A DNA stretch of 64,000 nt, taken from Escherichia coli (GTDB taxonomy: Bacteria > Pseudomonadota > Gammaproteobacteria > Enterobacterales > Enterobacteriaceae). Where the stretch lies: NCBI RefSeq assembly GCF_003018255.1, contig NZ_CP027440.1, one strand, 5' to 3'. Made by a program: the position numbers. Below, in pieces: positions 33,001 to 36,000 of the stretch. Numbering within the stretch: the first letter of the stretch is position 1; each line of letters begins with the position of its first letter.

Positions 33001-36000
33001 TTCAAAGCAGAATACGACGCCATCGCCGACGAATTCGCACTACTTGATGAAATGCTGGCAGCACGAAAAGAAGCAGGCTTAACCCAGGCTGAAGTTGCTG
33101 AACGTATGGGAACAAAAGCGACTGCGATCACCAGAATGGAAAGCAATCTTGCATCAGGTATAAGCGGCCCATCATTTGCCACACTGAAAAAATTCGCCCG
33201 TGCTACAGGGAAAAAACTCCAGATCCGCTTCGTTTAACTCTCCACTACCGCGCCGTCATTCTGGCGGCGCTTTACCCCAGAGAAATATCAATCACCGGAT
33301 TGCCACATCCCACTCCGGCTCCTGCCATCTCAAATCCGGTGAATCATTTCTCACCGGAATAACCATTACGTCCTTTTCCCTCCGCTCCCTTTCTATCGCC
33401 ATCACAGCCAATGCTGCAACCATGATGTATTTTTGTTCGTCGGTTCCTGTTTCATAACGACGCATGAGGGTAAACTCGGGGCGATCAGTAACCTCAATGA
33501 TTTCGTTAATTTCTTTAATTTCGAGAGGAATATCCATGAGTTTAGTCTCCTTTGACATTACATGCCCACACTGTTTAAAAGAGCGAGCTGTTATTGAGGC
33601 ATTTGCCGAAAAACAAATTGAAAAAACACCTCTTTTTAACGTCGCTTTTGTATGCAGAAGTTGTCATCGAGGAGGTGTTGCTATTGTTGAAATCCCATCA
33701 GACCACTATCACGGCCCCATGGCGGAAAGCCAGAAAAAAGACCTCGATATTCTGATTTCAGGAAATAGCCAGTACCGTTTCCGCAAGATCTATCCTGCGG
33801 TCAAAAAAATTACCGCACCAGAATATACGCCCCCGGTTGCAGACCGTACTTTTGTTGAGGCAAAAGAGGATTTACAGAGGAGGCGGTACGACACAGTGGT
33901 AATTCTTTGTCGCAGAGTCCTCGATATCTCCACGAAAAAACTGCTCGGCGATGAAGCAGGAAAAGAATCGCTGTCGCAACGTATTCAGATGATTTACAAA
34001 AAAGGGCTGATCACTGAACAGATGAAGGAATGGGCTCATATTGTACGAATTGATGCCAATAAAGCAGTTCATACAGATGAAGTTTTCACACCAATTGAGG
34101 CAAGCCAGATCCTGAGTTTTACCGAAATGTTTTTAGTCTACGCCTTCACTCTGCCTGCAATGGTGGCAGCCAGACGTGAACAAAAAAGATCAGATTCAGC
34201 CTCTATATGAATCACTTTTCTGAACACGTAAGCCCCCGTCATTCACGACGGGGAGAACATCAATCCCTCTGCACTCCCCCGCCAGAATGCCAGCACACGC
34301 TGCATCGTTTCGCTGTTACGGCACTCGCGACAAATTATGTTGTAGCGTCTGTCGTAGCGCCGGATTTCCCCATCAGGTAATGCCCGGATAAGACCAGGGT
34401 CAATAACAACCGGTTTCTTTGCCTTTGCTCTCGAGAGTTTTTTGCGGGCATTTTGCCAGTCCTTACGCGCCTGATCAGACGGGAATAAACCATAACCTGA
34501 GTCGAATATAGCGCCACTGACAACCAGTTCTCTGGACAAACGTCTGACAGCTGTCTTGCTGACTCCGGTTTCAGTAGCCAGTTGCCTGAACGTTCCCCGA
34601 CCATTCAGGCGCACGAGCTCCACAATACGTGCCTTCAGTTCTTCCCGCTGTTCGGGTGTAAATACTTTTGCCATAAGCTCTCCAGTTATCACTTTTCCGA
34701 TGCAATACTGCTGGATGAATCGGTAATCTGCATGACAAGTTCCCGGTGTTTATTCAGCTCACGTAGTGCAGCACAGACACGCTCCCACTTCTGGACCTGT
34801 TTTTTGGCGCGACGAAGTTCACGACTGGCGGCCCGTAGAGGTGGAAGGGTCACTGCACCAGCATATTTTTCGGTGAACGACGGAACATCCCGGATAAACT
34901 CATCTGTACAGGCCTTTGCCGTGCCCTCTGACATCAACGGAAAACGATTCAGTTCGTCGCCTGACGCGCTGTTTTCTGCTTCGTGTGTGATATTCTCATC
35001 CTGCGATGATGACGCGCTCAAATCGCCGTTTTCGACGTCAGGCACTTTATAACGGAATTTTCCCTTGATAGACACGCGCACCAGGCGCCCCGTTGCTGTT
35101 ACTACCGCCAAAGTGGAAGCAACCTTACGAGTGGTAACTCCGAACTTACCCGCTATTTCTTCACAGGTTTTAGCCCCCTCCTGAGCGATAAACTCAATCA
35201 TCATGTCAGCGCTAACTTTTGGAGCGACCTCTTCGGTTACCACATCCGGCGCTTCAGATTGTAGTGCCTGCCCTTCGGTTACCCCGGATTCACCTTCGAC
35301 AGCCAGAAACCAGGTGTGACCCGTTTTATCAACAACACCATTTTTTTTGAGTTCCCACAGTTCGTTGAGAACTTCTTCACGGCTGATATCAAGCCGCGCC
35401 GCCAGTTCAACAGAATTGGCTTTACCCATCGCTTTCAGTGCATGCAATACGGTTTCCATCGAAAATTTACCTCGTCAAAAATTCTCACATACCCTGACGC
35501 CCAACGTTTGACCGCCAGCTCTCCCAGTTAAAATTCACCCAACGACCACCGTTCATGGTCATACGGTCCATCACCCGCTCGCCGAGGAGTGTGCTCATCG
35601 CTGCGTGATTCAGGTTCGTCAGCATCCCGACACTGCGCAGTGATGCCGTTCTGCGGTCGACGATCTGGTTCAGTATGACCTGCTCGTTGCGCGTATCCCG
35701 CTACATGCCAATTTCATCCAGGACCAGAAGGTCAACTCCACAAAGCTCCTGTAAAAATTTCTCACCAGACTTGCCGTTGTCGTAGCCGTCATGCAACACA
35801 CTCATGACATCGGACACGGTGACGATAATCACGCTTCTCCCCTTCGCCATCAGCCGATTACCAATCGCTGCTGCAAGGTGATTTTTCCCGGTGCCAGGTT
35901 TACCGCTGAACACGAAATTCGTGCAGCCGGTATGCAGCTCTGCCGCGATGGATTTTGCCTGACTCAGAGCATGGCGCTGACCGTCGTTCTGCACCCGGTA

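Follow-up and report, generated by a model that had tools for sequence, protein, structure and literature searches.

A RAZR-Like Zinc-Ribbon HEPN Protein and Its Divergently Encoded Partner in a Shiga-Toxin Prophage of Escherichia coli

1. Introduction

RAZR, the ring-activated zinc-finger RNase of Escherichia coli UMB1727, was found by Vassallo in 2022 as the defence system PD-T7-4 (PMC9519451) and was described by Zhang in 2026 in Nature (PMC13017515; PDB 9Y9C and 9Y6U). Its N-terminal Cys4 zinc-finger domain, which its authors compared with RPB9, is the most variable part of the protein and sets specificity. A functionally required linker follows, and the C-terminal DUF4145 domain is a divergent HEPN RNase with catalytic residues R146 and H154, alanine substitutions of which abolish defence (PMC13017515). 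RAZR is non-toxic alone; it is activated by polymerising around ~170 Å rings of a phage Erf-like protein or of portal proteins, and it acts by abortive infection (PMC13017515). DUF4145 had been placed within the HEPN superfamily by a 2013 survey, which already listed zinc-ribbon fusions and double-stranded DNA viruses (PMC3710099). Here, we describe a gene of this kind in a 64,000-nucleotide stretch of E. coli DNA (RefSeq assembly GCF_003018255.1, contig NZ_CP027440.1), called the window below, which is a lambdoid Shiga-toxin (Stx) prophage. The gene, at 33536–34210 on the plus strand, encodes a 224-residue zinc-ribbon and DUF4145/HEPN protein, and its start codon overlaps that of an open reading frame (ORF) for 81 amino acids (aa) on the minus strand, at 33292–33537; stop codons are included in both.

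Part of this was known: the protein is already annotated as a DUF4145 protein, and abortive-infection RNases made of a zinc ribbon and a HEPN domain are a known kind since RAZR. New are a clade in lambdoid prophages that lies below the current models of defence finders and a conserved head-to-head partner gene. RAZR senses the ring geometry of phage proteins, and the occurrence of a large sister clade on temperate phages raises the question of how a ring-building phage avoids aborting its own development. We propose, with a probability of about 0.6, that the locus encodes a RAZR-like defence RNase made in the lysogen, with a partner on the lytic strand that would act as a switch or a self-immunity factor.

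2. The 224-Residue Protein as a Remote Relative of RAZR

The gene is supported by its ORF and sequence, by Pfam and PHROG matches, by an AlphaFold2 model and by RefSeq, which annotates both genes at exactly 33536–34210 (+) and 33537–33292 (−). Translation from the ATG at 33536 gives 224 aa (MSLVSFDITCPHC...), and RefSeq/PGAP choose the identical start. An in-frame upstream ATG at 33464 would make a protein of 248 aa. Since the homologues all begin at a conserved MG(I/L)L..CPHC N-terminus, and RefSeq agrees, 33536 is taken as the true start, and the extension encoded by 33464–33535 is probably not translated. The RefSeq names are "DUF4145 domain-containing protein" for the E. coli entry, WP_000060692.1, and "DNA binding protein" for the phage record, YP_009226851.1. 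The protein matches phrog_1305 with E 3.5e-63.

The first-pass annotation of this DNA, made from the sequence by eye, had recognised a CxxC...CxxC ribbon and a segment resembling DUF4145, and had staked its reading on a DUF4145 or HEPN match. Such a match is found. Pfam DUF4145 (PF13643) covers residues 118–197 at an independent E-value of 8.1e-9 and 35.9 bits (model positions 11–88 of 88), and the same assignment is precomputed for all 83 of 83 homologues. In an alignment of 29 homologues of 37–70% identity, C10, C13, C40 and C43 are invariant, as are R171, N175 and H179. The AlphaFold2 model built on the homologue alignment has a mean predicted local distance difference test score (pLDDT) of 89.4. 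It consists of an N-terminal beta ribbon (residues 1–52), a short helix and strand, and a helical bundle (residues 100–222); low confidence is confined to the loop of residues 172–179, which bears the R...H motif.

The domain layout is as follows. The Cys4 zinc ribbon, residues 1–55 (33536–33700, plus strand), is defined by the invariant cysteines and the modelled beta strands, and the family profile matches RPB9-type zinc ribbons in the PDB weakly, with E ~0.2. We propose it as the sensor domain. The linker, residues 56–99 (33701–33832), carries the invariant prolines P87, P95 and P99 and is otherwise the most variable segment: mean pairwise identity within the family is 0.30 there, compared with 0.44 in the zinc ribbon, 0.58 in the first half of the HEPN domain and 0.74 in its C-terminal half. 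The HEPN domain, residues 100–222 (33833–34201), has the all-alpha fold of that superfamily, and HEPN toxins of HEPN-MNT systems (5yep, 7ae2/7ae6/7ae8) are among its best fold matches. A search of BFVD with the model returned only two unnamed viral matches and was uninformative. The predicted catalytic motif is R171-x3-N175-x3-H179 (VRIDANKAVH), encoded by 34046–34072. A conserved Rx4-6H motif had been suggested as a check; the conserved arginine and histidine are indeed present, while their spacing, R-x7-H, falls outside the canonical range and is identical to that of R146 and H154 in RAZR, with which they align. From these features, the HEPN domain is probably an RNase, with R171 and H179 as the predicted catalytic residues.

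The label "DNA binding protein", attached both to phrog_1305 and to YP_009226851.1, would instead make the protein a zinc-ribbon DNA-binding regulator and not a nuclease. Zinc ribbons do occur in transcription factors, and the model gives weak fold matches to NrdR-like N-terminal domains. However, two thirds of the protein adopt a HEPN fold with invariant R, N and H at the catalytic site, a Pfam search of the 224-aa protein found no helix-turn-helix (HTH) or other DNA-binding domain, and the label is apparently an automatic transfer with no cited evidence. We consider such a regulator highly improbable.

The closest characterised protein is the abortive-infection RNase RAZR (PMC13017515), which agrees with the abortive-infection context that the first-pass annotation had given for DUF4145. 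The relationship is visible only with profiles: phmmer with the single 224-aa sequence against the PDB found nothing, and the family profile alone reached the RAZR chain. Against an alignment of 24 RAZR-family sequences, hhalign gave 92% probability and E 6.8e-7 over 122 columns, which comprise the linker and the HEPN domain, and P87, P95 and P99 align with prolines of the RAZR linker. We treat the 224-aa protein as belonging to a sister clade of RAZR-like architecture and not as a member of PD-T7-4 as currently modelled; judged by these alignments, the homology is real but remote, at the level of a superfamily or a sister clade.

Entries for canonical RAZR homologues deserve a separate comment. 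Many of them (P0085, P0087, P0088, P0092) are 166–169 aa long and start at an internal Met past the first CxxC knuckle, and at one RAZR-homologue locus (L130, 3952–4593) a separate 38-aa ORF is called just upstream. In the short entries, the full zinc ribbon is likely to be hidden by errors of annotation, either at the start site or through a frameshift.

3. The Partner ORF and the Shared Start Site

The 81-aa ORF is annotated as a hypothetical protein (WP_000354190.1 / YP_009226852.1) and matches phrog_8371 with E 2e-55. Its core motif is DRPEFTLM.RYET..DQK, and three helices followed by a disordered tail are predicted; no match was found in Pfam, NCBIfam, PADLOC or the PDB. At loci whose DUF4145 protein is only 37–52% identical to that of the window, the opposite strand encodes a homologue of 54–93 aa directly upstream, and the core of these homologues is DRPEFTLMQRYET..DQK...ALIGKLIEQDR. 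Conversely, when loci were retrieved from IMG/VR by a peptide pattern of the small ORF, a DUF4145 gene was divergently adjacent in 35 of 36. The small ORF has a ratio of nonsynonymous to synonymous change (pN/pS) of 0.40 in its own frame, where pS is saturated at 0.78, compared with 0.61–1.67 in the other five frames; by this measure, it evolves as a genuine coding gene.

The two genes meet in the palindrome CATG at 33535–33538, within CCATGAG. The plus-strand ATG is at 33536–33538, and the minus-strand ATG is the complement of 33535–33537, so that the start codons overlap by 2 nt. The same offset of +1 between the two ATGs is found in all 29 paired loci examined (29/29), and the overlap also occurs in five species-representative genomes, of Serratia, Tatumella, Rosenbergiella, Enterobacter and Photorhabdus. 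The putative ribosome-binding sites are laid out reciprocally, each within the first codons of the other gene. For the 224-aa gene, a Shine–Dalgarno-like GAGAGGA is at 33523–33529 on the plus strand, inside codons 3–5 of the small ORF, and a GGA/GGG-rich element occupies the equivalent place in homologous loci. For the small ORF, a Shine–Dalgarno AAGGAG is at 33547–33552 on the minus strand, inside codons 4–6 of the 224-aa gene and 9 nt before the minus-strand ATG; homologues have GAGGA at this site, encoded by the conserved MG-I-L-T codons.

The first-pass annotation had drawn attention to the overlapping divergent ORF around CCATGAG, and both ATGs indeed lie there. What is added here is that the small ORF is a conserved partner and not incidental. 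Chance does not account for the locus, since homologues of each ORF are conserved and dozens of diverged loci show the same arrangement.

The small ORF is truncated at a few loci (L032 and L036) and missing from another (L030). In phage phiSTEC1589-Stx1c (L003, 3546–4606), its DNA sequence is 98% identical until 3 nt before the shared start; the N-terminus is new and initiated by GTG, and an unrelated 166-aa ORF takes the place of the RNase gene.

4. Prophage Setting and Distribution

The ~1.1 kb around the gene pair are 99.8% identical to Shigella phage 75/02 Stx (Diegovirus), and the same region is present in E. coli chromosomes. The early-right genes of the prophage are all on the minus strand: cro-like, cII, O-like, DnaC-like, DUF1627 and DUF977 genes, then the nin genes and Q. 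The 224-aa gene is antisense to this operon and to the early and late lytic transcription units in general, while the small ORF has the same orientation as the early-right operon and belongs to it. Homologues of 47–70% identity in E. coli, Atlantibacter and Yersinia are likewise in lambdoid prophages, where they are antisense to the early operon and occupy the slot that separates the replication genes from ninB. A scan of species-representative genomes with the RNase profile yielded nine further loci in nine genomes, and 80 loci were retrieved from IMG/VR; taken together, the same slot and orientation are found in prophages of Escherichia, Atlantibacter, Yersinia, Serratia, Tatumella, Rosenbergiella, Enterobacter and Photorhabdus. 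The slot is variable, since near-identical phages hold different toxin–antitoxin-like genes or other ORFs in it. Such a position and orientation bear out the suggestion that the gene is placed as a moron.

The family is large, with 1575 clusters at 50% identity and E<=1e-3, and many of the best-scoring members are ~205–230 aa long and match over nearly their full length. The allele of the window is rare, being found in 36 of 5426 complete E. coli genomes, and the protein family occurs in 12 of 50,697 phage records.

An RNase in this position could serve the lytic programme of the phage itself, in host shut-off or RNA processing, and not defence; HEPN RNases do have varied roles (PMC3710099). 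The gene, however, is antisense to the early and late lytic transcription units, its site is a variable slot for morons next to a RelE/HTH gene pair (Section 6), and the counts just given indicate that it is dispensable. A role in lytic growth is thus improbable.

Two E. coli loci (L005 and L006, in GCA_016734205 and GCA_017739315) carry a different allele of the RNase gene. Their protein is only 70% identical to that encoded by window positions 33540–34090, whereas the flanks, including the small ORF and the last 39 RNase codons, are 98–100% identical in DNA sequence. The alleles differ through residues about 5–185, with a saturated synonymous divergence (dS) of 0.8–1.6 and an omega of 0.1–0.5. 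This pattern indicates an internal allelic replacement by recombination. Positive selection between the two alleles was considered and rejected as not demonstrable, as the values instead reflect purifying selection with saturated dS.

Two side observations concern other loci. A subclade of 212-aa proteins (IMG/VR loci L065–L087, L135 of Pseudescherichia vulneris and Klebsiella phage 2b LV-2017) is encoded 34–134 bp divergently upstream of a gene like that for the terminase small subunit. In a Yersinia prophage (L009/L010, 9490–10410), the neighbour of the repressor gene encodes a BstA_C domain; because it co-resides with a RAZR-like pair, this prophage holds at least two candidate abortive-infection modules.

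5. A Proposed Role in Lysogeny and on Induction

We propose that the locus works as follows. The lysogen would express the RNase gene as a moron, and the gene product would stay inactive until the Cys4 ribbon engages a protein of a superinfecting phage. The triggered HEPN RNase would then cleave RNA non-specifically, leading to translation shutdown and an aborted infection, by which the lysogen would be protected. On induction of the prophage itself, the early-right transcript, once antiterminated, would run antisense through the whole RNase gene and its ribosome-binding site and would lower RNase synthesis. The small protein would come from the same transcript and may add to this effect by neutralising or regulating the RNase, so that the phage is spared from aborting its own development.

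It is tempting to go further and to see in the CATG-locked pair a self-contained switch between lysogeny and lysis, with the RNase alone in the lysogen and, on induction, both antisense silencing and a dedicated small anti-RNase protein. As each gene encodes the ribosome-binding site of the other, weapon and antidote would then be inseparable by recombination, and the small ORFs that stand alone in other Stx phages would be anti-defence genes directed against resident RAZR-like prophages. This extension is put forward tentatively, as a possibility well short of probable.

Several observations weigh against the role proposed here. The first group concerns the similarity to RAZR. The best PADLOC family is PD-T7-4 (PDLC04109), reached with 16.2 bits and E 1.3e-3 over residues 84–183 only; the protein thus falls outside that family, and its sequence similarity to RAZR is marginal. 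The family profile matches the RAZR chain 9y9c at an equally marginal E 0.078, with RiDsNgavH aligned to RIVGNQAVH. The zinc ribbons are not aligned: hhalign against full-length RAZR-Ec covers residues 69–192 only, in a comparison of low sensitivity that uses a single RAZR N-terminus, reconstructed, like the rest of the RAZR-Ec sequence, from database fragments and the PDB alignment. Residues D179, D180 and R184, which act between RAZR dimers, have no charged equivalents, since hhalign pairs IIVDDRITRP with LVYAFTLPAM. On this alignment, ring-templated oligomerisation cannot be assumed, and oligomers may form through other contacts.

The second group concerns expression and the pair itself. 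Scans for sigma-70 consensus sequences upstream of the RNase gene, together with an anchored alignment of 23 upstream regions, revealed no convincing promoter; the conserved blocks in that region are there because the codons of the small ORF lie in it. The 212-aa subclade is outside the replication–ninB slot and has no small partner ORF. Solitary copies of the small ORF are present in phage phiSTEC1589-Stx1c and in about 11 of 47 E. coli genomes; their N-terminus is replaced, and another gene stands instead of the RNase gene. Finally, AlphaFold2 modelling of the RNase and the small protein as a single fused chain gave a predicted template modelling score (pTM) of 0.53, about as expected for undocked parts, so that an interaction between the two proteins is unsupported by modelling; the fusion was made with a 30-residue linker, a paired alignment of 22 sequences and the monomer model, with no predicted aligned error output, and is weak negative evidence only.

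These results bear on two other explanations of the pair. According to the first, the small early-operon protein is a protein-level antidote that binds and inhibits the HEPN RNase, as T4 Dmd does with RnlA and LsoA, and the locus is a defence module with self-immunity or an unusual divergent toxin–antitoxin system. The tight two-way association and co-divergence of the genes and the purifying selection on the small ORF are in its favour; moreover, a product of the lytic strand would be made exactly when the portal ring of the phage itself appears, and solitary copies fit an anti-defence gene. Yet the fusion model shows no gain in confidence, canonical RAZR needs no antitoxin (PMC13017515), and a subclade does without such a partner. 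Nor does the pair look like a type II toxin–antitoxin system: those are co-directional operons, whereas here the genes are divergent, with overlapping start codons, and no confident docking is seen in the fusion model. A protein antidote in this strict sense seems to us doubtful.

According to the second, the genes are merely neighbours. The small ORF would be an ordinary gene of the replication–ninB region with an unrelated function, the RNase gene would have been inserted beside it once and co-inherited, and CATG would be a frozen accident of compaction. The copies of the small ORF that persist without the RNase gene and the absence of a predicted interaction speak for this, and all paired loci are in lambdoid prophages of one bacterial order, so that common descent explains part of the association. 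On the other hand, lambdoid genomes are highly mosaic, and the flanks of the pair differ (HigBA-like, ParD, ninB, Roi, DUF977, DnaB), yet the pair persists with its exact 2-nt overlap at identities as low as 37%. The segment shared with PhiR12_3 consists of exactly both genes (query 41–1032). The reciprocal encoding of the ribosome-binding sites in the first codons also argues against mere adjacency, which we would therefore rate as rather unlikely.

We return to the proposal of a defence RNase with a partner on the lytic strand. Its interest is that a partner locked to the RNase gene by the start codons is a concrete candidate answer to the question of self-abortion, with the reservation that the sensor is here only possibly ring-sensing. 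The presence of the locus in Stx phages of E. coli and Shigella means that it may influence the coexistence and superinfection of Stx phages and hence the epidemiology of toxin phages. In practical terms, current defence finders would miss the family, as the 16-bit PADLOC score shows, and the phage record mislabels the protein as DNA-binding.

6. Neighbouring Genes

A RelE/ParE-type toxin gene (32676–32939, plus strand, 87 aa) matches phrog_2523 and, at E 1.4e-10, the C-terminal region of NsnC in PADLOC. It is overlapped by an HTH antitoxin-like gene (32929–33237, plus strand, 102 aa, phrog_1373). Both genes have the orientation of the RNase gene, opposite to that of the early operon. In related phages, other toxin–antitoxin-like genes (ParD, HigB-like) occupy this position, which makes the slot a small cluster of accessory genes.

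The HTH gene and the small ORF converge, and their stop codons flank a GC-rich 9-bp hairpin, 33250–33270 (GCGCCGUCA...UGGCGGCGC, then UUU). Its dG on the plus strand is -19.1 kcal/mol, with a z-score of -4.7; on the minus strand, the z-score is -2.2. It is a possible terminator for the toxin–antitoxin-like transcript, and the terminator scan passed over it on account of the short T-run. Because this strong hairpin intervenes, simple read-through from the RelE/HTH pair into the RNase gene is argued against. A scan of 32300–34800 with Rfam found no known RNA.

Further away, an AT-rich block at 30800–32600 has a GC content of 28–35%, compared with ~50% in the backbone. It holds two minus-strand ORFs of unknown function (phrog_21161 and phrog_19308) and an ORF for a DUF805 membrane protein (30879–31253, plus strand, Pfam E 1.8e-30), which sits in an unannotated gap of RefSeq NC_029120 (about 16334–16723). 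The O-like replication protein (36232–37314, minus strand) has an (EQ)6 repeat (SSQEQEQEQEQEQERDK) and a Q/P-rich stretch in its middle.

7. Comparison with Known Systems

The toxins of HEPN-MNT systems resemble the 224-aa protein in their helical HEPN fold and in the catalytic R...H site. Unlike them, the protein described here has an additional zinc ribbon and linker, the R-x7-H spacing, and no MNT partner; its partner is a small helical protein encoded divergently and not a nucleotidyltransferase encoded in an operon. Dmd of phage T4, a small early phage protein that inhibits the HEPN toxins RnlA and LsoA, is a precedent for inhibition of such enzymes by a phage product, and the PDB entry for this system, 5hy3, is among the fold matches of the 224-aa model. 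In contrast to the 81-aa ORF, Dmd is made by the attacking phage, from a gene that has no linkage to that of the toxin; the two have no sequence similarity, and here no complex is predicted.

DS-38 of DefensePredictor (WP_001313577.1) is a validated E. coli defence protein with HEPN and zinc-finger domains (PMC13092281). It was considered as a possible match to the protein of the window and rejected on the sequence in Table S8, which is 366 aa long, has the opposite order of domains (N-terminal HEPN, C-terminal multi-Cys) and shares no common motif. Among the entries listed in the DefensePredictor tables, none corresponds to WP_000060692 or to motifs of the 224-aa protein (PMC13092281).

BstA and its aba element are a precedent for prophage defence with self-immunity built into the locus (PMC8585504). 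As proposed for the locus described here, an abortive-infection gene of a lambdoid prophage must spare its own phage, and immunity is embedded in the locus so that recombination does not separate the two. The differences are that BstA is unrelated in sequence, that aba is a DNA element and not an ORF, and that self-immunity in our case is a hypothesis only.

RAZR remains the closest system. The two proteins are alike in size (about 212–219 aa for RAZR and 224 aa here), in the order of their domains and in being carried on mobile DNA. Both have a Cys4 ribbon whose first knuckle is CPHC, a proline-containing linker and a C-terminal DUF4145/HEPN domain with R-x3-N-x3-H, and in both the N-terminal part is more variable than the HEPN domain. 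They differ in that the 224-aa protein is remote in sequence, with only the linker and the HEPN domain alignable. They also differ in setting: a RAZR homologue is in an integrase-linked islet without a divergent small ORF, whereas the 224-aa gene is found in lambdoid prophages, antisense to the early operon and head to head with a conserved divergent partner.

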